From the NCBI GenBank assembly GCA_945861155.1, contig CAMATN010000004.1, positions 3,237-67,236 of the forward strand: a stretch of DNA of 64,000 nucleotides, in the 5' to 3' direction. The notes beneath the pieces are model-generated. The model did no database searches, was not told where the DNA came from, and saw nothing but the letters and a program-made list of their open reading frames with translations. Below, piece by piece: positions 2,520 through 13,353 of the stretch. Each line of letters starts with the position of its first letter. Within the stretch, counting starts at the first letter, position 1. Made by a program: the position numbers and the translations under genes. This DNA is from Rhizobium sp. Q54. Its GTDB lineage: Bacteria > Pseudomonadota > Alphaproteobacteria > ATCC43930 > CGMCC-115725.

Positions 2520-3830
2520 TCACGACAGGTGATCGCGCACGGATTGTGCCGCCAGCCCGCCGATGCCCCAGAACGCGAGTGCAAGCAGCGCGAGGGTGCC
2601 GAGCGATCGCCAGCGACGGGGATAGATCGCTTCTTCCGGCAGGCTCGGCGGAATGAAGCTGGCGATAAAGACATGCTGGCGATCGGCCGTGGCGCGGGCC
2701 TGGTCGACCCCGCGCAGCGCGAGCTGGTAGGCCGCCTCGGCGAATTTCCGCGTGCTCTCCAGCTGTTCGTAAGCGCCGAGGGTCCGCGACAGCGTGTCGG
2801 GACGCGTCTTGTCCGGATCGGTCAACTCATCGGACAGGATTCGCCGCTGGGCCTCGAGCGATTTGATACGCGCGGTCAGAACCTTGATCGAGGGCGCATC
2901 GTCGCGCATGTAGCGCTTCAGCGTCGCCCGTTCGGCGTTCGCCCGAATCAGTTCGTCGCGCAGCCGGGTCGCGAGGAGCCCGGTCGCCTCGGCTGTCCTC
3001 GCCGGGTCGATCATCCCCTCCCGGTCGCGGAATGCGCGGATCTCTCCGAGTACCGATTTGAGCCGGGTTTCGGCTTGCGCCAACTCCGCCTCGGCGCGCT
3101 GCGCTCCGTCGCGCCGCGCCCGCCGCGACAGCTCGTTGACCAGCTTTTCGCAAGACGCGACGATCGCCTCGGACAGGCGCAGCGCGTCGGCCGGCGCAAA
3201 GGCGCGGACTCGGACCGTGACCGAGCCGTAGGCCGGGTCGTAAAACGGATCGACCTGCCCCTTCCAGTACCGCACCAGCGCTTCGATCGAGGCTGGAATC
3301 GTCAACCCCGACCACCAATCGGCCTGCGGCGGCGAGAAAAACCGACGAAGGTCGAGCGTCGCGTCGATCTCGTCGACGATCGCCCGGCTGGTGATGTACT
3401 GGACGACGATCTGCGACTCCAACGCCACCGGAGATTGGATCGGGTTGCCGGCGAAGAGCGACATCGGGTCGAAGCGCGGCGCGTCGACGCTGTTGAGCGT
3501 AAAGCGGAACTCCGCGACGTACTGGTCGGCCGCGACGGCAAAATAATAGACGGACGCCGCGGCTATCGGCATCGCCACCAGCGCGGCAAACGACAGGACG
3601 CGCAACGACAGGAATCGCAGCGGCAGAATGCTCCAGGATGGGCGGCCGCCGGGACCGGCCGCGCGCTCGACCGCCAGCGGCGTGCGCAGGCCGCGCGCGC
3701 TTGGCACGAGCAGCCCGCCGGCCTGCGCCGGCAGGGCAGGCTCGGACGGAGTACCGACCGGTTGGTAATCCTCGGGCGATCGCGGCGCGGCCAACTCCGG
3801 CGCGCGCGTCAGTCGGGGCGCGAATCGCAT
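2520..3830 (-). CDS. kpsE: capsule polysaccharide export inner-membrane protein, KpsE/CtrB (PCP-3) type
   Basis: N-terminal TM segment (FAALVAMPIAAASVYYFAVAADQYVAEFRF), a long coiled periplasmic region and a C-terminal TM. It lies directly downstream of kpsT. I chose the ATG at 3830 (MRFAPRL) rather than the ORF maximum at 3932. It overlaps the kpsT stop by 22 nt. Confidence 0.7.
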   Translation of the reverse strand: MRFAPRLTRAPELAAPRSPEDYQPVGTPSEPALPAQAGGLLVPSARGLRTPLAVERAAGPGGRPSWSILPLRFLSLRVLSFAALVAMPIAAASVYYFAVAADQYVAEFRFTLNSVDAPRFDPMSLFAGNPIQSPVALESQIVVQYITSRAIVDEIDATLDLRRFFSPPQADWWSGLTIPASIEALVRYWKGQVDPFYDPAYGSVTVRVRAFAPADALRLSEAIVASCEKLVNELSRRARRDGAQRAEAELAQAETRLKSVLGEIRAFRDREGMIDPARTAEATGLLATRLRDELIRANAERATLKRYMRDDAPSIKVLTARIKSLEAQRRILSDELTDPDKTRPDTLSRTLGAYEQLESTRKFAEAAYQLALRGVDQARATADRQHVFIASFIPPSLPEEAIYPRRWRSLGTLALLALAFWGIGGLAAQSVRDHLS

Positions 3831-4492
3831 GAGGGCGGCTCCGCGAGGGTGCGCCGATAGTACTGGAACGCGCTCGCGACATCGTCGAACAGCTGCAAGC
3901 GGCCGCCCGCGAGAACGGCTGCGCGATCGCAATACTGGCGTATCGTATGGTGATTATGGGTCGCGAGGATGACGTCGGAGCGCCGCAGACGCTCGCGAAA
4001 CGCAGCCGCGCATTTGCGGCGAAAGCGCTCGTCGCCGATCTCCGTTATCTCGTCGATCAGATAGACGTCGAAATCGATCGCCAGGCAGGCGCCGAAGGCG
4101 AGCCGCGCCCGCATTCCGGCCGAATAGGTGTTGACGGGCATCTCGAAATAATCGCCGAGTTCGGCGAATTCATCGACAAAATCGGTCGTCTGGCGCACCC
4201 CGGCGCCGTACACCCGGGCGATGAACGCGACATTTTCGCGGCCCGACAGGGCGCCGTGGAAGGTGCCGCCAAACCCGAGCGGAAACGACACGAGGACATC
4301 GCGGCGAATGGCGCCGCGATCGGGCATCTCGGACCCCGCCAGCAACCGGATCAGGGTCGACTTGCCGGAGCCGTTGGCCCCGAGGATGCCGATATTATGG
4401 CCGGACGGAAAATCGACGGTCGTATGGTCAAGGAGGAGCCTGCGGCCGGAGGCGGTCTTGTAGGTCTTCACGACGCCTTCGAGGGCGATCAC
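3809..4492 (-). CDS. kpsT: capsule polysaccharide export ABC transporter ATP-binding protein
   Basis: Walker A GANGSGKST, signature YSAGMRARL, Walker B YLIDE. Collinear with E. coli KpsT as I recall it. The GTG start overlaps the kpsM stop (GTGA). Confidence 0.9.
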   Translation of the reverse strand: MIALEGVVKTYKTASGRRLLLDHTTVDFPSGHNIGILGANGSGKSTLIRLLAGSEMPDRGAIRRDVLVSFPLGFGGTFHGALSGRENVAFIARVYGAGVRQTTDFVDEFAELGDYFEMPVNTYSAGMRARLAFGACLAIDFDVYLIDEITEIGDERFRRKCAAAFRERLRRSDVILATHNHHTIRQYCDRAAVLAGGRLQLFDDVASAFQYYRRTLAEPPSCDSRPD

Positions 4493-5060
4493 AACGGCGC
4501 GCTCAACTTGCGGTGCGACAAGCGGTGCAGCGCGAGCCCGCCCAGGAGCGCCAGGATCGCAACGACGACCAGGTACGATTGGTCAAGCCAATGCGGCTGG
4601 TAGCTCGCGAAGAACCCGGCGCGGAACCAGTCGATCGCATGCAATAACGGGTTCCACACGAGGATCTCCCGCGCCCACTCCGGCATCATTCCCGGCACAT
4701 AGAAAATGCCCGAAATGAAATACAGAACGCGGGTCAACTGTCCGTAGATCTTTTCCCATGACCGCCAGAACACGGTGACGACGGCGTTGATACAGCCGAT
4801 CCCGCAACCCAACGCCGCGATAACCAGCAGCGCCATCGACGGCGCCCACCAATCATCCGGCATCGCCGCCATGCCGATCGCCGCGAACCCCGCCAGCAGG
4901 ATTACCGCGACAATGATGTCGGTCGTGACTTCGAGGATGCCGCGCGCGGCGATCACATCGAACGTCGTGACCCGCGGCAGTTGCAGCAGCGGCGCATTAC
5001 CGACGATGGCATGGCTCATCCCGCTGCTGGCGTGGACGAACACATGATAGGGAATGAGGC
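4489..5060 (-). pseudogene. kpsM: 3-prime fragment of kpsM (ABC-2 capsule export permease), cut by the IS insertion
   Basis: Multi-TM ABC-2 sequence (…TGLIPYHVFVHASSG…WNPLLHAIDWFRAGFF…). The first 8 residues of ORF 4489..5088 are encoded by the IS end. The true N-terminus lies at 11964..12171. Confidence 0.85.
5053..5060. repeat. 8-bp target-site duplication, left copy (AATGAGGC)
   Basis: Identical octamer at 11956..11963, each directly abutting a terminal inverted repeat. Confidence 0.85.
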
Positions 5061-5083
5061 CGGTATTATGGCGCAAATGGGAC
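5061..5083. repeat. left terminal inverted repeat CGGTATTATGGCGCAAATGGGAC
   Basis: Perfect reverse complement of 11933..11955. Confidence 0.9.
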
Positions 5084-5162
5084 CACACGATCTGGTGCTT
5101 GAAACCCCGCCTCAGTAGCTACATATAGTGAGGCGATCCTAAAATGCCCGTGGCCTTTGCTC

Positions 5163-5996
5163 ATGCGCACGAACTATCGAACGATTGCCCGACAGGCATT
5201 GAAGCGGGCCAGAGCCGAAACAGCGAGCGGTGATCCCGAGCGGCTTGCCTACGCGGCTCTCGAATTGCGGAACGCACTGGAAGCGGTGACGTATGACAGG
5301 GCACAACTATATAAGGACGAGGTTTCCGCCGACGTATATCGGACATGGCAGCCACGGAAGGTCATCAGATACATGGCCGAGATCGACCAGATGGTGTCTT
5401 TCAAAAGTTGGGAAGTATTGTTCAAGCCGCAGCACAAACCCGGCGAACCTGAGAACCGTTGGATTTCTTTCGGCACAGAGACCCTTCTGACTCAGAAGAA
5501 CCTCAAAGATCACTATGATGCCTTGGGGAGTTTCCTACACGTTCCTACCCCTCATCAAATTGCCAACAATAAAGAGCCAGACAATGAACGTCTTAGAGAA
5601 CACTGCGAAGAATGTATTGCCATTCTCGACAGAGTTCTGAAATCTCCTGTATCCAAGGTCACGTTCAGTGTGTCTTCCAAAGGGGAATGTCAGCGATGTG
5701 GTCATATTGTCATAAAGCGAACCCCACCGAACTCAACAGTACCTTTTGAAGCTCGTTGTTTCGAGTGTGGTGCCGGATACGTGGTGACGCATGAGGGTCC
5801 AAATACAGTGAGATGGATTCCAAAAACATGTCCGATAGGATGTCAAACTCCCGGCTGCGACCAGGAAATAGAGCTATGGGAGGACGAGATTCGGCCTGGT
5901 GTCACATGGGACTGCGAGGGGTGTGGGGAAAGCTATGCGCTCCATCTAAGGATAATGCAGAAAATCAGAACTGACATAGGGACGGTCGAAACATGA
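5163..5996 (+). CDS. hypothetical protein: helical N-domain plus tandem zinc ribbons (cargo gene A)
   Basis: ORF 5157..5996 starts at a TTG; the first ATG is at 5163. The C-terminal third has several Cys pairs (CQRCGH, CFECG, CPIGC..CDQE, CEGCG). Its stop overlaps the next start (ATGA). Confidence 0.6.
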   Translation: MRTNYRTIARQALKRARAETASGDPERLAYAALELRNALEAVTYDRAQLYKDEVSADVYRTWQPRKVIRYMAEIDQMVSFKSWEVLFKPQHKPGEPENRWISFGTETLLTQKNLKDHYDALGSFLHVPTPHQIANNKEPDNERLREHCEECIAILDRVLKSPVSKVTFSVSSKGECQRCGHIVIKRTPPNSTVPFEARCFECGAGYVVTHEGPNTVRWIPKTCPIGCQTPGCDQEIELWEDEIRPGVTWDCEGCGESYALHLRIMQKIRTDIGTVET

Positions 5997-6529
5997 TTAA
6001 ATTGGTATTGGTGTGGAGTGGGGTGGCACTCGGCGGGGTTATTCTGATCGCGGTGTATTGGAACTTTTCACCGACCAATACGGCTAAACAGAATCTTGGC
6101 ACGTTTGGTCTCCTTGGAGATTGGTCATTCGATTGCGCTAGTAAGGGACGGACAACGTTTACCGCGCCATTTTTCGGTAATCCCACTGGCATTTCGACTG
6201 ATGGCAATGAAAACACATATTCAGCGGCGGAGATTAAATCCGCTACAAGGCTCACCGACGACAAACTCAAAATCGTATCTCTGATTACGAAGGTGCCGGA
6301 CGCAAATAAGAAGAACGATGCCGCTCGACAAGAAGGTGAGATTTGGCAAACGGTTTATGAACGAATTGGCAAGAAGATGCGGGTTATGGAGATTGAACGA
6401 GAAGATGGAAAGAAAGTCGTGGTCAAGAACGGTTATTTTTACGAAACCCGCGAAGGAAAAGAGCCGACAAAGACCACTAATTTCGCACTTTTCCTTGAAA
6501 AGTGTCTCAACTGGCACTGTTGCCATTGA
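5993..6529 (+). CDS. hypothetical membrane-anchored protein (cargo gene B)
   Basis: N-terminal TM helix LVLVWSGVALGGVILIAVYW followed by a Lys/Glu-rich soluble domain. Translationally coupled to gene A. Confidence 0.6.
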   Translation: MIKLVLVWSGVALGGVILIAVYWNFSPTNTAKQNLGTFGLLGDWSFDCASKGRTTFTAPFFGNPTGISTDGNENTYSAAEIKSATRLTDDKLKIVSLITKVPDANKKNDAARQEGEIWQTVYERIGKKMRVMEIEREDGKKVVVKNGYFYETREGKEPTKTTNFALFLEKCLNWHCCH

Positions 6530-6612
6530 TCTGACCGCACAGCGTCAGTAATGAAGGAGTTCTTTTTCGTATATAGTAGTGTAACGTTTTTCAGTTGAGG
6601 GAGGGTAATCAA

Positions 6613-6984
6613 ATGCCCCACATTGAATCTCTATACGAGGTTGAGTTCGGTGATGTTGCAGACGGCGGTGCCAGCTACCGTAATGGCGGCGAATTCGTCC
6701 TGGAAGCCAACCGAATTTTCGGCGGCGATAGCGGCTATTACTACAACGGCACGTTCTCATGCGATGGTGAACAGATCGCAGCCGACGTGAAGATCGTCAA
6801 ACACAACCCGAATTGGGGCAATGCATTTGGCGATGCTGCACAATCTTTCAATGTGCGGCTCCAAGGAACCGTCAACAACACCGTGATCGAAGGCTCTATG
6901 GAAAGGCTGGATCGACCGGGAATACGTTTGCCGGTCAGGTTGACATGGAAAGAAGATCTTCCCTGCGAGATACCGCCACCATAA
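6613..6984 (+). CDS. GrlR-like small beta-barrel protein (cargo gene C)
   Basis: The ATG at 6613 has a strong SD (GAGGGAGGG). The pattern LYEVEF..G....GGEFVLEANRIFGGDSGYYYNGTF...DG.QIAADVKIVKHN resembles the GrlR family as I recall it. Not verified. Confidence 0.5.
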   Translation: MPHIESLYEVEFGDVADGGASYRNGGEFVLEANRIFGGDSGYYYNGTFSCDGEQIAADVKIVKHNPNWGNAFGDAAQSFNVRLQGTVNNTVIEGSMERLDRPGIRLPVRLTWKEDLPCEIPPP

Positions 6985-7010
6985 CGAGAGGATTATGAAC
7001 GGAGAGGAAT

Positions 7011-7952
7011 TTATTGCAGATCAGGCGCGTATGACCAACCATTCTTCTCGGTTTTGACCCAACGGCAAGCACTGGTATTTGAGATTTCATGGTGTCGTGC
7101 GGCACTTGCACAGGTCGGAAACGGGCCATCCGGCGTGTTGACAGCCCGGTGGTTGTGATCTTTCGGCGAGAGGATGAATTTCTCGACGACGACATGGGCG
7201 TAAATATAGCGATGTTTGATACCCCACACGGTAGGAACAGATACTCCATATTGGGCACTGATTTCCTTGTAATATCGGGCGTCAGCACAGATCGCTCGAA
7301 TGTCGTCATCCGATAAGTTACCCATCTGGTGTCCTTTCTGGAATGATGCGCGCGGTCGGATGAACACTTCCTCGCAATATACATGATCATAGGCAAGTCC
7401 ATGCTTGATACGTTGGACCATCGAAGCTGTGATATCGTACTGCTCGCCGATTTCTCTGTATAATCGTTTATCTACACAAACCGCGCGAATTTCCTCGTCA
7501 GATAATTTTCCAGGAGTCCCGAACTCACCAAGTAAGATACGGAGATTTATGCGTGTTCGCGCCGCCGCCTTATATTCCTCTGATCGATGGGTTCCCAATA
7601 CCGCCTCCTGAGCCGCAGCTATCGAGGTAATTCGTTGAAGTCGGCGTTTTGGGTGGTTGGACGAGCACCGCTTGCTGCAAAACTGTCGTTTAGCAAAGGT
7701 CGTAATTTGTTCTTTCTGGCGTCGTACAAGGGACTTTTGGCATAATGCACAATGTCTATCGGGCACAACCCGTCTGTGGCCGTGCCCCGCACATCGCACG
7801 TTGCAATATTTTCGTCTTATGTAGAAATAACGATATTCGTTCCAACGTTGGACGAGTTTCTTCTGACAGAAAGCACACTGTCGGTCATCGTCAACGATAA
7901 TCTGTTTCCGTCCCATTTTCCCTATTCTCTTTTGAGAACGATGAGGGAGCAC
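7011..7952 (-). CDS. modular DNA-binding protein: 2x Cys4 zinc finger, 2x HTH repeat, NUMOD1-like C-terminus (cargo gene D)
   Basis: GTG start. Internal duplications: CAFCQKKLV..YCNVRC with CALCQKSLV..FCSKRC, and LSDEEIRAVCVDKRLYREIGEQYDITASMVQRIKHGLAYDHV with LSDDDIRAICADARYYKEISAQYGVSVPTVWGIKHRYIYAHV. C-terminal GPFPTCASAARHHEISNTSACRWVKTEKNGW. Confidence 0.65.
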   Translation of the reverse strand: MLPHRSQKRIGKMGRKQIIVDDDRQCAFCQKKLVQRWNEYRYFYIRRKYCNVRCAGHGHRRVVPDRHCALCQKSLVRRQKEQITTFAKRQFCSKRCSSNHPKRRLQRITSIAAAQEAVLGTHRSEEYKAAARTRINLRILLGEFGTPGKLSDEEIRAVCVDKRLYREIGEQYDITASMVQRIKHGLAYDHVYCEEVFIRPRASFQKGHQMGNLSDDDIRAICADARYYKEISAQYGVSVPTVWGIKHRYIYAHVVVEKFILSPKDHNHRAVNTPDGPFPTCASAARHHEISNTSACRWVKTEKNGWSYAPDLQ

Positions 7953-7973
7953 TGCCCCCTCATTGTGTCCAGG

Positions 7974-8885
7974 TCAAGCAGCTTTCCGAGTTTCAACGTC
8001 CCCGAAAGGCCAGTCTGCTTCGCCCAGACCGTATTGCTCAACAATGTGCAGCCACCGGTTGAACGTTTCTTGCAAGAGATCGCGACGCTGCCGGGCCGGC
8101 ATCGCGTCAAGCCATGCTGCGTCCTTCTCCGCTTGAACATCATCGACCGAGAGGTCGGGCTTACCATCCCGATAGGTTTGCACGAGGCATGCTCGTGCGT
8201 GCTCAACGCCGAGACCGGCGGGTCGACTTACCGGCATAAACATCCGCTGGTCGAGCATGGGGTACGCCAGATCGCCGAGGAACTCCATCACCTTCTTCCC
8301 GGACACCCGCGATGTTCTGGTTGTCGTGGAAGGCTCGATTGGTGGTGTATCTGATGGCTTGCGACCGTTGAGTGGGAACCGCTCTCGCAACTGCTCGATT
8401 AGATCGTCAACCGTATTCTCTAAACAGAGCCGCAGAATTTCCTTCACATGCTGCGGGTGCTGCATAACCCACGGGACCGCCTTACGAGCCTTCGTAAGTC
8501 CGCCCGACTGAGCGATCAGATCGACGATCTCGGGGTCGTTGAACTTCGCGTAGGCGTCGTAGACATCTACGCGGGTGAGGATGTCATTCCGCGTGTAGCA
8601 ACGGTGCGGGAATCGTTGCTGCACAAAAAATATGAAATGGTCCACGGTTACAATCGGGGACTTGATGCCCGCCATCCATTCGGTCGGGCGATGATATAGG
8701 CTCGAAAAGAAATAGCAGCTTTCCCATAGGTAGGTCGCATAATTGCTAACAGAAGAATCGAGTGCATTACACAATTCGTCGAGAGTTATTTTGCTGGCGT
8801 CAGCTTTAACGCCGACGCGTGGCACAGGGTTGTTGATGAATATACGCTTGGACACTGAAATCTCTCCTTTATAATCCGCCGACAA
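7974..8885 (-). CDS. hypothetical protein, 303 aa (cargo gene E)
   Basis: TTG start. It lies 21 nt upstream of gene D on the same strand. No motif recognised. Confidence 0.55.
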   Translation of the reverse strand: MSADYKGEISVSKRIFINNPVPRVGVKADASKITLDELCNALDSSVSNYATYLWESCYFFSSLYHRPTEWMAGIKSPIVTVDHFIFFVQQRFPHRCYTRNDILTRVDVYDAYAKFNDPEIVDLIAQSGGLTKARKAVPWVMQHPQHVKEILRLCLENTVDDLIEQLRERFPLNGRKPSDTPPIEPSTTTRTSRVSGKKVMEFLGDLAYPMLDQRMFMPVSRPAGLGVEHARACLVQTYRDGKPDLSVDDVQAEKDAAWLDAMPARQRRDLLQETFNRWLHIVEQYGLGEADWPFGDVETRKAA

Positions 8886-8959
8886 TCGTTGGATAATCTG
8901 GATATAGTCCAGAGACCAATCTTCATCAAGGGCAGGAGAGGACTTTTAACGAGGCGACT

Positions 8960-9277
8960 TTAACCTTGCTCTGGTATGCCGGCGCGCATTCTGTTGATTT
9001 TCTGCCGAACCTCAATGAGCTTATGTTTTATATCGGGCTGGACGGAAATACCTGTTCCATTTCCATATTCGTCCGTCTGAAAAGTCACGCCGACTTCCTC
9101 GAATATTTTGCGTATATGTTCGAGGATGACTGGCATCGTCTTACGCTTTCCTTTTTCCAAATCTTTAATCGTAGACAAGCCGACATTAGACAAGTCCGCC
9201 AGATCCTCCTGGCTCCATCCCAGCCATGCGCGGGCCGCTCGGCACTGTTCGCCGGTTATCGGTGCGTCATCTGGCAT
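8960..9277 (-). CDS. XRE-family helix-turn-helix transcriptional regulator (cargo gene F)
   Basis: ITGEQCRAARAWLGWSQEDLADLSNVGLSTIKDLEKGKRK is a classic XRE HTH. The ORF maximum reaches the GTG at 9319; I prefer the ATG at 9277 (MPDDAPITG…) by analogy with homologues. Confidence 0.7.
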   Translation of the reverse strand: MPDDAPITGEQCRAARAWLGWSQEDLADLSNVGLSTIKDLEKGKRKTMPVILEHIRKIFEEVGVTFQTDEYGNGTGISVQPDIKHKLIEVRQKINRMRAGIPEQG

Positions 9278-9347
9278 CTCATACTCGCAAACATCCTTAA
9301 CAGTCCCGGAATCTAGCACCCGTTCAGGCTGACTTCAACCATTTCAG

Positions 9348-9384
9348 TTGACCAACGCCGCCGTGTCAGCTAATATCGCTGACA
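9348..9384 (+). promoter_or_regulatory. sigma70-like promoter with overlapping palindromic operator upstream of the transposase
   Basis: TTGACC (9348-9353), a 17-nt spacer and TAATAT (9371-9376), 22 nt before the ATG at 9398. TGTCAGC (9364-9370) and GCTGACA (9378-9384) form a 7-bp inverted repeat bracketing the -10. Confidence 0.45.
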
Positions 9385-9397
9385 TAGGCCACAACGG

Positions 9398-10408
9398 ATG
9401 ACGCAACACTTCCTCATATCCCCCGCAGCGCGGACGCTCTCAGTCCGTCAAGTCGCCAGAATGACCGATGAGGAAGCCTTCGATATCTTCCGCACTATCC
9501 GCTTTGCCGCCAATGGTGGCGAGCCGTTCTGCCCTCACTGCGGTTGCCCAAAGATCTACCAGCTAAACGAGACGCCAATCCGCTGGAAATGCGCCGATTA
9601 CCGCGATTGCGGAAAGAAATTCTCGGTCACGTCGGGCACCCTCTTTCACTCCCGTAAGCTGCCGATCCGCGACTACCTCGCCGTCATCGCCCTATTCGTG
9701 AACGGCGTCAAAGGTGTCGCCGCGCTCCACCTGTCGAGGGACATGAACATCCATTTCAAGTCGGCTTTCGTGCTGCTCCACAAGCTGCGCGAGGCGATGG
9801 GTGCTGAGGTTCATGGGGTTGACCAGCTTGGCGGTCCCGATGAGCCGGTCGAGATCGACGGCACCTATATCGGTGGCGATGTCCGCGCCCCCAACCAGGA
9901 AGCCGATAAGCAACAGGACTGGTGGAAGGCCAGGAAGGGCAAGACGGAGAAAAACACCGTCTCCATCGTGGTCGCCCGGGAACGGACGGGCAGGGCTATT
10001 CCTTGGGCCGTGCCGAGCGAGCGTGATGCGGTCGAGATTATCCGTGCTCACGTCGCGCCGGGCACGACCATTCACGCCGACCAGGGCCAGCATTGGAACA
10101 GCCTGCGCCGCACGCATCCGATGATGCGGGTCAATCACCAGATCGAAAAGCGGGCCGATAATGGCGCGAACATCAATCAGGCCGAGAGTTATTACGCCCG
10201 CTTGAAACGCGCCGAGTTCGGCATTTACCACCGCATCGCCGGGCATAAGAACTCCAAGACCCAAGCCTACGCCGACGAAATGGCGTGGCGGGAAAATCGC
10301 CGCCGTCAGGCCAATGGCACTCATTGGACGGCGATTACGACGCTCGCCCTGACGCTCCCCAAGAGCATCAGGTGGGCGGGTTATTGGCATCCCCGCGTAG
10401 CGGTGTAA
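9398..10408 (+). CDS. IS1595-family (ISXO2-like) DDE transposase
   Basis: N-terminal zinc ribbon (CPHCGCPKIY…WKCADYRDCGKKFSVTSGT), then a DDE-type core (VEIDGTYIGG … IHADQGQHWNS … NINQAESYYARLKR). 336 aa is the typical size. Confidence 0.85.
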   Translation: MTQHFLISPAARTLSVRQVARMTDEEAFDIFRTIRFAANGGEPFCPHCGCPKIYQLNETPIRWKCADYRDCGKKFSVTSGTLFHSRKLPIRDYLAVIALFVNGVKGVAALHLSRDMNIHFKSAFVLLHKLREAMGAEVHGVDQLGGPDEPVEIDGTYIGGDVRAPNQEADKQQDWWKARKGKTEKNTVSIVVARERTGRAIPWAVPSERDAVEIIRAHVAPGTTIHADQGQHWNSLRRTHPMMRVNHQIEKRADNGANINQAESYYARLKRAEFGIYHRIAGHKNSKTQAYADEMAWRENRRRQANGTHWTAITTLALTLPKSIRWAGYWHPRVAV

Positions 10409-10452
10409 TGCCTTCGGCAGCATCCCCGAAACCAGAACAGGAGGACAGCAGT

Positions 10453-10926
10453 ATGAGCGATGATGGCAGCAACCACCAGTCCAACAAGATCACGTCGAAC
10501 GAGTTGATTCGGCGTCGAAAAGATTTGATCTTCGAGATTGCCGAGGATGAGAAGTCGCTTCAACGCAAACGAGACATTCTTTTTCATATTACTGACACGA
10601 TTAAAGCGATTGATCCGAGGGTTAGATTGGAAGCAATACCCGCACGGCATCGGCGCGGAACGAAATCACCATACTTTGCGCATGGTGAGATTAGTGGATT
10701 TATTTATGATGCCGGTCGAGAGGGTGCGGATCACACATTTACCAGCAATGAGGTTGCGACATTGGCGATGCGTGCTAAAAGTCTTGACCCCGAAACGAAG
10801 CTCGCCGAGTTCAAGGATTTCGAGAACCGGATACGCCTGCAACTCAACGCGATGCGGCGCGATCAGACTGTTGAGAAGCTGGATGGTCGTGGTCGCGAGG
10901 CGCGCTGGCGTCTGTTGAAAACCTGA
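10453..10926 (+). CDS. hypothetical coiled-coil plus probable winged-helix protein (cargo gene H)
   Basis: The ATG at 10453 follows AGGAGGA (10439-10445). The C-terminus (…VEKLDGRGREARWRLLKT) looks wHTH-like. An intrinsic terminator follows. Confidence 0.6.
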   Translation: MSDDGSNHQSNKITSNELIRRRKDLIFEIAEDEKSLQRKRDILFHITDTIKAIDPRVRLEAIPARHRRGTKSPYFAHGEISGFIYDAGREGADHTFTSNEVATLAMRAKSLDPETKLAEFKDFENRIRLQLNAMRRDQTVEKLDGRGREARWRLLKT

Positions 10927-10950
10927 TCGTCGCTATCAGTCCACACCGAG

Positions 10951-10986
10951 AAAAACAAGCGAAGCAGATTGCCTCGCTTGTTTTTT
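10951..10986 (+). terminator. rho-independent terminator after cargo gene H
   Basis: AAAAACAAGCGA … TCGCTTGTTTTT forms a 12-bp stem with an 11-nt loop and ends in a T-run. Confidence 0.7.
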
Positions 10987-11001
10987 GATCTATATGGTTA
11001 A

Positions 11002-11026
11002 TATCCCTATCCGGTTAAGAACAGGT
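11002..11026. repeat. internal inverted repeat, left copy (TATCCCTATCCGGTTAAGAACAGGT)
   Basis: The reverse complement recurs at 11870..11893: 16 nt perfect plus ACAGGT after a 1-nt indel. Confidence 0.7.
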
Positions 11027-11171
11027 AAATAGGACAGAACATATAATTTGAGAGCGACGGTGATGCTGATAAGAAACAAGGAAATGTCAGGTGTTATTTA
11101 CGATTTACCCGAACTATGTGGTTCGAGAGACATTAAAATGCTCTCGATAGTTAGATTGATCGGAGAGGGGG

Positions 11172-11399
11172 CTATGGTATTTCCGCGAGGTCTTTCCCAA
11201 ACTGAGTTAGTTGAGCCGCCGCAACCTGTTCATCGTTTTTGAGGTCTCCCGTCCAGGGAACACTAACTTCTATTGTCGGAGCAATCGTCGAACCGGACGT
11301 GATCTTGTAGATGAATGTCGCTACCGGAATTGTTTGTCCGGTCGTCGTATCGGTCCCTGCCCCGAATTCGATGCGTAATATCTCTCTGACCATCGTCAT
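11172..11399 (-). CDS. hypothetical 75-aa protein (cargo gene I)
   Basis: ORF only. It lies inside the module bounded by the internal inverted repeats. Confidence 0.35.
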   Translation of the reverse strand: MTMVREILRIEFGAGTDTTTGQTIPVATFIYKITSGSTIAPTIEVSVPWTGDLKNDEQVAAAQLTQFGKDLAEIP

Positions 11400-11489
11400 C
11401 CCGCACCCTCCGGTCGCAAGCCGCCGACAAGCTCGGCATAGGTGATCGTGCGCCGCGATACCGCCCGACGCAAGACGAAGGTATCCAAC

Positions 11490-11774
11490 TCAAGAATTGT
11501 GGCGTTCTGCTAGATAAACATTCCTTTGATAAATTACCGCAGACGGTGATACATCTAATGCCCGCGCTATATCTGAGGGAATATGTCCTGCATCTAGCCA
11601 TTCTCGTAGTTTAGCGACACCAAACTCCGTTAGCCGCATTCCGTCTTTGACAGCTTTGACAGGTTGGTCGGCCTCCGCATTGGTGGCGTTTTCAGCCATC
11701 GCACGCAGGGATATCAGCTTCTCTCTGAGCCGTTCTAAATCATCGAGAGCAGCGGTGATGAGAGCGAGTGTCAT
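11490..11774 (-). CDS. small HTH protein, 94 aa (cargo gene J)
   Basis: SD AGGAGA before the ATG. C-terminal HTH-like GHIPSDIARALDVSPSAVIYQRN. A perfect TTGACA -35 lies upstream. Confidence 0.5.
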   Translation of the reverse strand: MTLALITAALDDLERLREKLISLRAMAENATNAEADQPVKAVKDGMRLTEFGVAKLREWLDAGHIPSDIARALDVSPSAVIYQRNVYLAERHNS

Positions 11775-11799
11775 GGGACCATCTCCTTTTTATGATCCC

Positions 11800-11829
11800 A
11801 TTTTAATATCAATGTTAAATATATGTCAA
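11800..11829 (-). promoter_or_regulatory. sigma70-like promoter for cargo gene J
   Basis: On the minus strand: TTGACA (11829-11824), an 18-nt spacer and TAAAAT (11805-11800), about 25 nt upstream of the start at 11774. Confidence 0.4.
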
Positions 11830-11869
11830 CACATATCTCGTCCCCACTCAAACGCCCACAAAATCCCGA

Positions 11870-11893
11870 ACCTGTGCTAACCGGATAGGGATA
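11870..11893. repeat. internal inverted repeat, right copy
   Basis: ACCTGTGCTAACCGGATAGGGATA is the reverse complement of the 11002..11026 motif. Confidence 0.7.
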
Positions 11894-11932
11894 ATGGTTA
11901 AATATGTATAGCCTGTGATGGCGAAATATTTA

Positions 11933-11955
11933 GTCCCATTTGCGCCATAATACCG
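11933..11955. repeat. right terminal inverted repeat GTCCCATTTGCGCCATAATACCG
   Basis: Perfect reverse complement of 5061..5083. Confidence 0.9.
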
Positions 11956-11963
11956 AATGAGGC
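11956..11963. repeat. 8-bp target-site duplication, right copy (AATGAGGC)
   Basis: Identical to 5053..5060. Confidence 0.85.
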
Positions 11964-13353
11964 CGGTGTAATAGAAGACGAAGAAATGCGTGCCGATCGG
12001 CGGCCGGCTTTGCATCAATACGGCGAAGGTCGCCGACAACAGCGCGATGTGCAGGACGGGCTCGATCAGCGCCCAGCCATAGCCCAGCCGCGATTCGGCG
12101 TACCGGGTCCGGGTCTCGCGGATGATCAGGGCGCGGATCACCCGGCGCTGACTGCGCAGACGGTCGAGCACGCCGGGAGCGGGGCGCCGCTTCCGCGGTG
12201 GTCTGCCCGCGCCGTCGGCGAGCACGACGTACTCGCCGTCGATCGTGTCGAGACGGTGATTGAGCAGGTGCAGCACGGCCTCGGCCGACGGCCGGTCGTC
12301 CGGAAAATTGTGCAGCAACTCGCCGCCGGCAACCGTCGCCTGCCTTGTCAGGCCGGCGGCGAGGTAGAGGCTCAATTGCGCGCGCTTGATGTCGCTGCCC
12401 GTCGGATCGAGCGCGCCGGCGCGCTCGAATGCCAGCGCGGCACCGGACAAATCGCCAAGCCGCCACAGCAAATGCCCGCGATGCAGGTGGTATTCGGCGA
12501 CATCGGGTGCGCCGGCGAGGGCGCGGTCGATCGCGGCGAGCGCCGCCTCCCAGTTTCCCCGCAGCATCTGCGCCGTAGACAATACCCGCAGCAGCCGCGG
12601 GTCGGCGGCAGTTGCTGCAGCCGACGATGCGGCGCGCCCGAGAAGCTCGGCGGCCTCGTCCGCCCGGTCGCAGCGCATCAGCAATTCCGCGGCATCGACG
12701 AGGATGCGGTTGTCGCCGGGCGCCAGATCGACCGCGCGCAAAATCAGCGCGGCGGCCTCTTCGCCCTGGCCAAGCGCATGGCGCGCCGCGGCCAGGTCGC
12801 ACAGCGCGCGCACATTGTCGGGTTCCGCCGCGACCGAACGAGCGAGATAGCGCAGGGCCGCGTCATCGTGTCCCGCCGCGAGCAGCAGGACCCCGGCATG
12901 ATGGGCGAATTCGGGATTCGCGGGCGCCCGCTCGCTCGCCGCAGCCGCATGCGCGATCGCCTCGTCGATCCGTCCGATCGCCGCGAGCGAGGCGCTGGCG
13001 TGCCGATGGCCCTCGATCCAGTCCGGACACAGCTCGATCAGCCGGACATAGACCGAAGCCGCAACGTCATGACACGCGCAGTTGCTGAACACCCACCCGC
13101 AGATCGCCAGCATCGCCAAATCGTCGCCCGCCGCCGGCAAGGCGCGCGACACGCATTCGAGCGCCGTCTCGCGCCGTCCGTCGTGCAACAGCGCTTCGGC
13201 CAGCCGGCAATTCAGTCCCGCGTCGAGATCGGCGACGGCGTTGGCTCGTCTGACATAATGGAGACACGCATCGAGGTCCCGCCGGTGGAGCGCCGACAAG
13301 AACGAATCAGCATCAACTACTCGTTGAAGGAGAAGATTATCTGTTTGTCTCAA
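11964..13353 (-). pseudogene. kpsM: 5-prime part of the disrupted gene: TPR-repeat region (about 390 aa) in frame with the KpsM N-terminus
   Basis: …RRVIRALIIRETRTRYAESRLGYGWALIEPVLHIALL… matches the KpsM N-terminal signature (E. coli LFLREIRTRFGKFRLGYLWAILEP). Upstream in the same frame are Ala/Leu-rich TPR-like repeats with no stop. An internal GTG at 12171 would give a 259-aa KpsM once rejoined. Confidence 0.8.

Follow-up and report, generated by a model that had tools for sequence, protein, structure and literature searches.

Insertion sequences (IS) of the IS1595 family that carry passenger genes, called 'transporter IS' (e.g. ISNha5), are documented (Siguier, Gagnevin & Chandler 2009, as cited in PMC11891212). 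Here we describe positions 5163-6984 of a 64,000 nt stretch of contig CAMATN010000004.1 from Rhizobium sp. Q54. This whole stretch is referred to as the window, and all positions are counted along it. The segment encodes three proteins, A, B and C, of which A weakly resembles HEPN proteins and C resembles GrlR. In brief, the GrlR of the LEE (locus of enterocyte effacement) of enterohaemorrhagic and enteropathogenic Escherichia coli (EHEC and EPEC) has an isoelectric point (pI) of 4.83 and an EDED motif that is essential for the binding of GrlA (PMC1868957). The census of the HEPN superfamily by Anantharaman et al. 2013 includes some accepted families without the catalytic Arg, and HEPN domains fused to zinc ribbons exist (PMC3710099). 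Two-gene abortive infection (Abi) or defence pairs combine a cytoplasmic sensor or enzyme with a small membrane protein.

We suggest, with moderate confidence, that the segment 5163-6984 holds the first three passengers of an IS1595 transporter IS, namely a lineage-specific A-B pair, in which A would be a protein of defence or Abi type, and a separate protein with the GrlR fold, C. The three genes are not a conserved three-component system.

Layout and co-occurrence of A, B and C

A, B and C are all real genes; they have homologues, many for A and C at 35-70% identity and two for B at 67-68%. They lie on the same strand, A and B overlap by ATGA, and C starts 83 nt past the stop codon of B behind a Shine-Dalgarno-like sequence (Table 1). 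An initial annotation of the window had reported this layout, and its coordinates, overlap and spacing match the sequence exactly. It had further proposed that A, B and C make up one self-contained accessory system, which should be seen to recur outside the element.

Scanning one genome per species gave 80 genomic loci with an A homologue. Searches with tblastn and profile hidden Markov models (HMMs) detected neither B nor C within approximately 6 kb of any of them. The same searches detected neither A nor B near the 84 C-homologue loci that were surveyed, and C is absent from the two other A-B loci. HMM cross-searches between C and A gave nothing, and neither did a profile HMM of B run against all open reading frames (ORFs) near the other A and C homologues. 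Thus, the three genes were never found together outside this element, and the proposal of one self-contained system is not supported. What stands of it is the A-B pair, which was found together at two other loci.

Among 5.8 billion proteins B has only two homologues (P0186 and P0187, 67-68% identity). Both are encoded 11-15 nt after A homologues that are the two closest metagenomic relatives of A (63-64% identical). The flanks of A-B differ in all three contexts, which are the IS1595 element, a BrnT/BrnA neighborhood and a serine-recombinase fragment. Since both B homologues directly follow A and the flanks differ, we regard A-B as a tightly linked pair present in three contexts. The pair is absent from the 80 other A loci, and the next-closest A relatives, P0071 and P0072, have different downstream genes and no B.

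In B a single hydrophobic stretch, with a mean hydropathy of 2.35, covers residues 4-22, and the domain behind it is charged (pI 8.8). This fits the single N-terminal transmembrane helix and charged soluble domain given in the initial annotation. No family or structure match to B was found in Pfam, NCBIfam or the PDB. At the level of genes, A-B resembles the two-gene Abi and defence pairs in that a soluble zinc-ribbon protein is translationally coupled to a single-pass membrane protein. A-B differs from them in having no homology to a PADLOC system and no partner conserved across the family. B is probably a lineage-specific partner that A has recruited, such as an effector or an anchor at the membrane.

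Gene A

The AlphaFold2 model of A (pLDDT 88) contains helices at residues 5-21, 25-50, 64-79, 111-123 and 141-159 and a beta-hairpin at residues 82-107, followed by beta-rich zinc ribbons. The N-terminal helical domain comprises residues 1-165. The initial annotation had described an all-alpha N-domain with Cys pairs of the zinc-ribbon kind; the model agrees, with one beta-hairpin among the helices. The eight Cys residues are invariant in 30 homologues and form four CxxC-type pairs, C176/179, C199/202, C227/232 and C251/254. Also invariant in this alignment are E40, E53, Y59, W62-Q63-P64, G104, Y118, A120, G122, L125 and H126. The resulting motifs are TWQP and HY[DN]A[LI]G..LH, where H117 is near-invariant (at least 90%).

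We found at least 154 homologues of A. When 1.84 billion representatives were searched with a profile of the N-domain alone, at least 925 clusters (50% identity) matched. Almost all of them have 260-290 aa, so the architecture of the family is fixed at about 270 aa. A, B and C have no significant match in Pfam, NCBIfam, PADLOC or PHROGs, and the initial annotation, too, had matched them to no named toxin-antitoxin (TA), defence or secretion module. The library matches were limited to weak ones: phrog_13799 (6e-4) and phrog_2483 (1e-3), whose functions are unknown, and, for B, PDC-M16A (2e-3). When A and the 30 homologues were compared with Pfam, NCBIfam and PADLOC, only generic zinc ribbons were recovered and no HEPN or DUF4145 model was matched. 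A precomputed annotation lists PF26832 for the A homologue P0163; our own profile scans did not reproduce it.

A Foldseek search of the A model against the PDB gave nothing significant. Eight of the 22 top matches are HEPN proteins (3o10, 1wol, 6m6u, 2q00, 8xeh, 1wwp, 1jog and 8xdj), all of them weak, with E-values of 0.06-2 (best for 3o10, sacsin, E = 0.06) and target-normalised TM-scores of 0.48-0.57. A fold search against BFVD gave nothing, and PDB sequence and profile searches using A, its N-domain, B and C gave generic zinc-ribbon or chance matches only. A lacks Rx4-6H, the catalytic RNase motif of HEPN proteins (PMC3710099); in the 30-homologue alignment no conserved His is preceded by a conserved Arg at a distance of 4-6 residues. 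In its place A has the conserved motif H117-Y-x-A-x-G-x-x-L-H126. Given that Rx4-6H is missing, that no HEPN family was matched and that the PDB profile searches were negative, the modelled N-domain is at most weakly HEPN-like.

A shares with the HEPN superfamily (sacsin 3O10, HepT 6M6U, 2Q00) a helical bundle that repeatedly retrieves HEPN structures in Foldseek, a conserved His-containing motif around helix 111-123, a fusion to zinc ribbons, and residence in defence, restriction-modification, TA and mobile contexts. It differs in the lack of Rx4-6H and of a HEPN or DUF4145 profile match, in the poor fold E-values, and in the beta-hairpin inserted in the helical domain.

The 80 A loci span Alpha-, Beta-, Gamma- and Deltaproteobacteria, Cyanobacteria, Planctomycetota, Gemmatimonadota, Chlorobi and Nitrospirales. 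After clustering of all ORFs at these loci we did not find a conserved neighbor of A; the most common neighbors were a HipA/HTH (helix-turn-helix) pair (6 loci) and integrases (4 loci). Pfam sorts the 126 immediate neighbors into 81 families; among them are integrase, resolvase, Fic, HipA, RelB, Mrr, XamI, ThsB-TIR, DUF932 and RadC. At least 12 of the 126 were recognised by PADLOC as parts of defence systems, namely PD-T4-5, PDC-S04, QatD, ThsB, DpdJ, BrxH, HamB, SngC, CARF, and restriction enzymes of type II and type IV. Individual genes located downstream of A homologues encode TIR_2, HEPN_RiboL-PSP and DUF3644 proteins. Plasmids gave two full-length matches to A; plasmid copies adjoin TA genes (PemK/Phd) and an integrase (L182). 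Among 50,697 phage records one match was found. A distant A-like protein (27% identity over 60% of A) on a Roseibium aggregatum plasmid (L183) adjoins a gene annotated as 'abortive infection family protein'. This distribution is that of a solitary gene of defence islands or the mobilome.

Based on the company it keeps, we suggest that A is probably a defence or Abi type protein that acts largely alone. The trigger, a nucleic acid or a protein, would be bound by its zinc ribbons, and the site of the effector chemistry would be the cleft conserved in the helical domain.

Other relatives of A are arranged differently. In acetic-acid bacteria and Methylobacterium (L023, L024, L030 and L031), and in L067, the A homologue overlaps a different downstream gene by 4-14 nt. 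The partner in the first four loci is a conserved protein starting MIRIDVHHLL.., of 265-279 aa in three of them and truncated to 146 aa in L031, that has no Pfam match; in L067 it is a DUF3644 protein. From these overlaps with different genes, other A clades seem to have coupled partners of their own. In five further loci (L028, L035, L046, L056 and L058) the A homologue is followed by an unrelated small protein with an N-terminal hydrophobic segment. Remote relatives of the A N-domain (27-35% identity over residues ~5-185) are found in Rhizobium leguminosarum pRL31b3 (L181) and in L183. They lie within a multi-gene operon behind a gene with a UvrD-helicase domain, one of them 12 nt after the gene for the 'abortive infection family protein'.

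Gene C

The AlphaFold2 model of C (pLDDT 90) is an 8-stranded beta-barrel. Searched against the PDB with Foldseek, its top three matches are all GrlR (4kt5_A, 4kt5_B and 2ovs_A; E-values of 6e-6 to 1e-5, TM-scores of 0.71-0.77), and the next match is approximately 160-370 times weaker in E-value. The initial annotation had recognised a GrlR-type barrel by eye. The motif it spotted, N-x-I-x-GGD...Y-x-G, is also the one covered by a blastP match of C to EHEC GrlR (a local match over 30 residues, 37% identity, E = 0.003).

C has 64 homologues, some of which carry the name 'GrlR family' in their source. The Pfam model of GrlR, PF16518, matches 19 of 35 C homologues (best E = 2.5e-5); C itself gave no match at E of 1 or below. 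Comparison of the C family with EHEC GrlR by hhalign gave a probability of 1.3%. C is acidic; its pI of 4.59 would fit a homodimer that, as in GrlR, sequesters the HTH of a partner. The EDED motif of GrlR (residues 46-49) aligns to C50-D51-G52-E53 of C, a column that is variable in the 35 homologues. We did not find a grlA-like partner beside C, the next gene being convergent and unrelated to GrlA, nor genes of a type III secretion system (T3SS) or of the LEE in the element or its flanks.

C is thus like GrlR, which negatively regulates the LEE type III secretion island of EHEC and EPEC (2OVS, 4KT5; PF16518), in its size of 123 aa, its 8-stranded barrel, its acidic pI, the shared motif and the homologues that match PF16518. 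It is unlike GrlR in that the structural alignment has only 16-18% identity, C itself falls below the Pfam model, EDED is not kept in the family, no grlA-like gene, T3SS or LEE is nearby, and the host is a high-GC environmental bacterium rather than an enteric pathogen. With EDED variable, no grlA-like gene nearby and no T3SS, C is best described from its model as a member of a GrlR-fold family and not as an orthologue of LEE GrlR. By analogy to GrlR, the most likely mode of action of C is to bind a partner protein and sequester it, or to take up a hydrophobic ligand inside the barrel.

Next to C homologues lie a STAND ATPase together with integrase and resolvase genes, Abi_C, DUF4145, housekeeping genes, and a resolvase with DUF6680 and then Abi_alpha behind it. 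C was not found in plasmids or phages.

Two arrangements of C relatives recur. In 12 metagenome loci (L148, L152-L155, L158, L159, L166-L169 and L171), GrlR-like homologues 27-32% identical to C are encoded 6-26 nt upstream of a gene with a RelA_SpoT domain (~381 aa; PF04607, E = 1.8e-13). This spacing suggests that a GrlR-like barrel and a small alarmone synthetase may form a two-gene unit; we found no paper linking GrlR to alarmone synthetases. In prophage-like elements (L004-L007 at ~6700-9700 and L174-L177 at ~3700-7100), the C homologues share one slot, in divergent orientation to a serine resolvase. The genes downstream are swapped between the two sets, being a STAND/AAA_16 ATPase in one and DUF6680, a 77-aa ORF and Abi_alpha in the other. 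The slot looks like a variable hotspot for defence cargo that starts with a GrlR-like gene.

The carrier transposon

The region 5061-11955 is an IS1595-family transposon that moved as one unit. This assignment follows from the perfect inverted repeats, the duplicated octamer, the restored reading frame of the interrupted permease gene and the sole IS1595 transposase. In brief, the inverted repeats are perfect over 23 nt, occurring in two copies in the whole window and in none of 100 shuffles. The transposase, the only one inside the element, matches PF12762 (1.3e-30) and PF12760 (1.4e-8) in Pfam and NF033547 (transpos_IS1595, 5e-35) in NCBIfam. An 8-bp target duplication is typical of the IS1595 family (ISfinder). 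Deleting 5061-11963 in silico, so that 5060 is joined to 11964, restores the ORF of a kpsM-like permease in frame (...FVFYYTGLIPYHVFVHA...). The GC content is 47-55% in the block holding A, B and C and 65-70% in the flanks, and the block interrupts the gene of this ABC-2 permease. The initial annotation was thus right to place the three genes on a transposon.

The identical insertion was seen in three metagenome contigs. Among 178 fetched loci the inverted repeat is present only in copies of this insertion, and matches of the whole-element DNA to plasmids are confined to short stretches of the transposase gene. Neither at the A-homologue loci nor in plasmids did we find the cargo set, i.e. A, B and C with the other passenger ORFs, together. 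The GC content at third codon positions (GC3) is 0.41-0.62 in the passenger genes, whereas that of the transposase (0.76) is near that of the host genes (0.81-0.83); the cargo therefore seems to derive from a source lower in GC than that of the transposase.

Like the IS1595 transporter IS of the ISNha5 and ISNwi1 type, the element has just one DDE transposase, of the IS1595 family and with a zinc ribbon at its N-terminus. As in these IS, inverted repeats form its ends, 8 bp of the target are duplicated, and it holds several kbp of passengers unrelated to transposition that include regulators. It differs in a cargo combination that was not met elsewhere and in the GC3 of the cargo, which is unlike that of the transposase.

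Alternative explanations

Several observations weigh against our interpretation. Many of the 126 immediate neighbors of A are housekeeping genes. The HEPN resemblance is weak, as neither profiles nor an Rx4-6H motif back the best fold E-value, and the helical domain may belong to a different fold family. The A-B pairing is confined to a single small clade, with three contexts, and L009, whose A homologue is 79% identical to A, has a different gene after it and no B. The metagenomic contigs carrying C homologues are mostly short, so that some partners of C are possibly out of view. The functions proposed for A, B and C are read from context, and PADLOC and PHROGs recognise none of the three proteins. 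Within this element A, B and C may nevertheless be co-transcribed or functionally linked, because they share a strand and no terminator-like structure lies between B and C or after C. RNA folding found no terminator-like fold in the B-C spacer relative to shuffles (z = 0.6), and a scan for promoters and terminators, like the RNA folding of this spacer and of the 3' end of C, did no better than shuffles.

An unlikely but serious alternative is that A, B and C are all unrelated passengers that accumulated at the transposon end, with A acting alone and A-B adjacency reflecting the shared descent of a small segment. A is indeed solitary almost everywhere, the 79% identical homologue included, and B has only the two homologues. 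Moreover, the three A-B loci are similarly diverged in A (63-64% identity) and in B (67-68%), so A-B could be one inherited block. The block has nevertheless remained intact, with a gap of at most 15 nt or an overlap, while the surroundings differ in the three contexts. Functional pairs usually leave this kind of pattern.

The same tight arrangement and translational coupling would suit a TA or addiction pair that stabilises the element, where the toxin would be B at the membrane, or A via its HEPN-like domain, and the other protein would neutralise it. Many HEPN proteins are TA toxins (PMC3710099), the context is mobile, and TA genes (BrnT/BrnA, HipA, RelB and PemK) are often near the other loci. 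We consider such a pair improbable. In nearly all genomes A has neither B nor another conserved partner beside it, which is hard to square with an obligate role as toxin or antitoxin; no TA family model in Pfam, NCBIfam or PADLOC was matched, and at 277 and 178 aa the proteins are of atypical size.

That A, B and C work together as one accessory system of three components, in which A might sense in the cytoplasm, B act as effector at the membrane and C regulate, is very improbable given that A is solitary in 80 genomes, that C is missing from the other A and A-B loci, and that A and B are missing from the 84 C loci. What speaks for it is local: the shared strand, the ATGA coupling of A and B, the 83-nt spacer with a strong Shine-Dalgarno sequence before C, the lack of a terminator hairpin between B and C, and a GC3 that is alike in A, B and C (0.50-0.57) and unlike that of the host.

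Least credible of all is that A is not cargo at all and serves the transposon itself as a DNA-binding accessory or regulatory factor, as its start 80 nt inside the left inverted repeat and the frequency of zinc ribbons in transposition proteins might suggest, since the neighbors of A are heterogeneous, the inverted repeat occurs only in copies of this element, and just one of the 80 other A loci (L027) matches an IS1595 transposase, and this only marginally (E = 1.5e-6, 91 residues at 24% identity), ~5.5 kb upstream of A.

We keep to the interpretation of a lineage-specific A-B pair next to a separate GrlR-fold gene on a transporter IS.

Other passenger genes and the interrupted locus

Further features of the element and its flanks are given in Table 1.

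Table 1. Coordinates of the transposon, its genes and signals, and the interrupted capsule-export cluster in the window
Feature	Position	Strand	Remarks
kpsE-like gene, capsule-export cluster	2520-3932		
kpsT-like ATPase gene, capsule-export cluster	3809-4492		
kpsM-like ABC-2 permease gene, split by transposon	4489-5088 and 11848-13353	-	
Left 8-bp target-site duplication AATGAGGC	5053-5060		Same octamer at 11956-11963
IS1595-family 'transporter IS'	5061-11955 (6,895 bp)		One transposase and passenger genes
Left terminal inverted repeat CGGTATTATGGCGCAAATGGGAC, 23 nt	5061-5083	+	100% complementary to 11933-11955
Gene A, 277 aa	5163 (ATG) - 5996 (TGA)	+	Predicted helical domain and two Cys4 zinc ribbons
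Gene B, 178 aa	5993 (ATG) - 6529	+	Predicted single N-terminal transmembrane helix and charged soluble domain; ATGA overlap with A at 5993-5996
Shine-Dalgarno-like GAGGGAGGG	6597-6605	+	7 nt before the ATG of C at 6613; read from the sequence
Gene C, 123 aa	6613 (ATG) - 6984	+	Predicted GrlR-fold barrel
Gene D, basic protein, two CxxC...CxxxC fingers and repeated HTH motifs	7011-7952	-	Weak Pfam HTH_28, HTH_23
Gene E, unknown function	7974-8885	-	ORF; no match in Pfam, NCBIfam, PADLOC or PHROGs
Gene F, XRE-type HTH regulator	8960-9319	-	Pfam HTH_3, E = 2.5e-8
IS1595-family DDE transposase, N-terminal zinc ribbon	9398-10408	+	Pfam and NCBIfam
Small passenger ORF beyond transposase	10453-10926	+	ORF/gene call
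Small passenger ORF beyond transposase	11172-11399	-	ORF/gene call
Small passenger ORF, HTH-like	11490-11774	-	ORF/gene call
Right terminal inverted repeat, 23 nt	11933-11955	-	
Right 8-bp target-site duplication AATGAGGC	11956-11963		

Gene D is convergent with C at a distance of 27 nt. It encodes a protein of pI 9.8 with two CxxC-x(17-19)-CxxxC fingers and three HTH-like repeats (LSD[ED][ED]IRA[IV]C...). The basic D beside the acidic C is reminiscent of the charge pairing of GrlR and GrlA. D shows no similarity to GrlA, so homology lends no support to a C-D pair of the GrlR/GrlA kind. D was not found near A or C homologues elsewhere, and E is present only in copies of this element. The three small ORFs at 10453-11774 have weak HTH matches only.

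The insertion splits the permease gene of a capsule-export cluster, and capsule export is probably inactivated in this strain. A long ORF with tetratricopeptide (TPR) repeats reads through in frame into the upstream part of the split permease gene.

Significance

The tempting reading of a new three-gene system is here corrected to that of an ordinary IS1595 transporter IS whose insertion disrupted a permease gene of capsule export. Both the carrier and C belong to known kinds. For the A family none of the four libraries holds a model, nor is there a significant match to a solved structure, and the family is a lead with some potential. Because it is large, scattered, unmodelled in these libraries and found among known defence genes, it is a reasonable defence-island candidate, and its invariant residues are targets for mutagenesis.

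We offer a wider proposal tentatively, and think it more doubtful than the explanation of the locus itself. The A family would be an undescribed, usually single-gene anti-phage or Abi family, A-B a variant with a recruited membrane effector that was spread by IS1595, and GrlR-fold barrels outside pathogens may be general small partners of defence or RelA_SpoT proteins. If so, the A family would combine a helical domain, in which an HY..G..LH motif replaces Rx4-6H, with tandem Cys4 zinc ribbons. To our knowledge, GrlR-fold proteins are known only as virulence regulators of the LEE. Here they occur in environmental bacteria on mobile elements, and distant relatives lie directly upstream of RelA_SpoT genes, which hints that the GrlR fold may be a broader partner-binding module.

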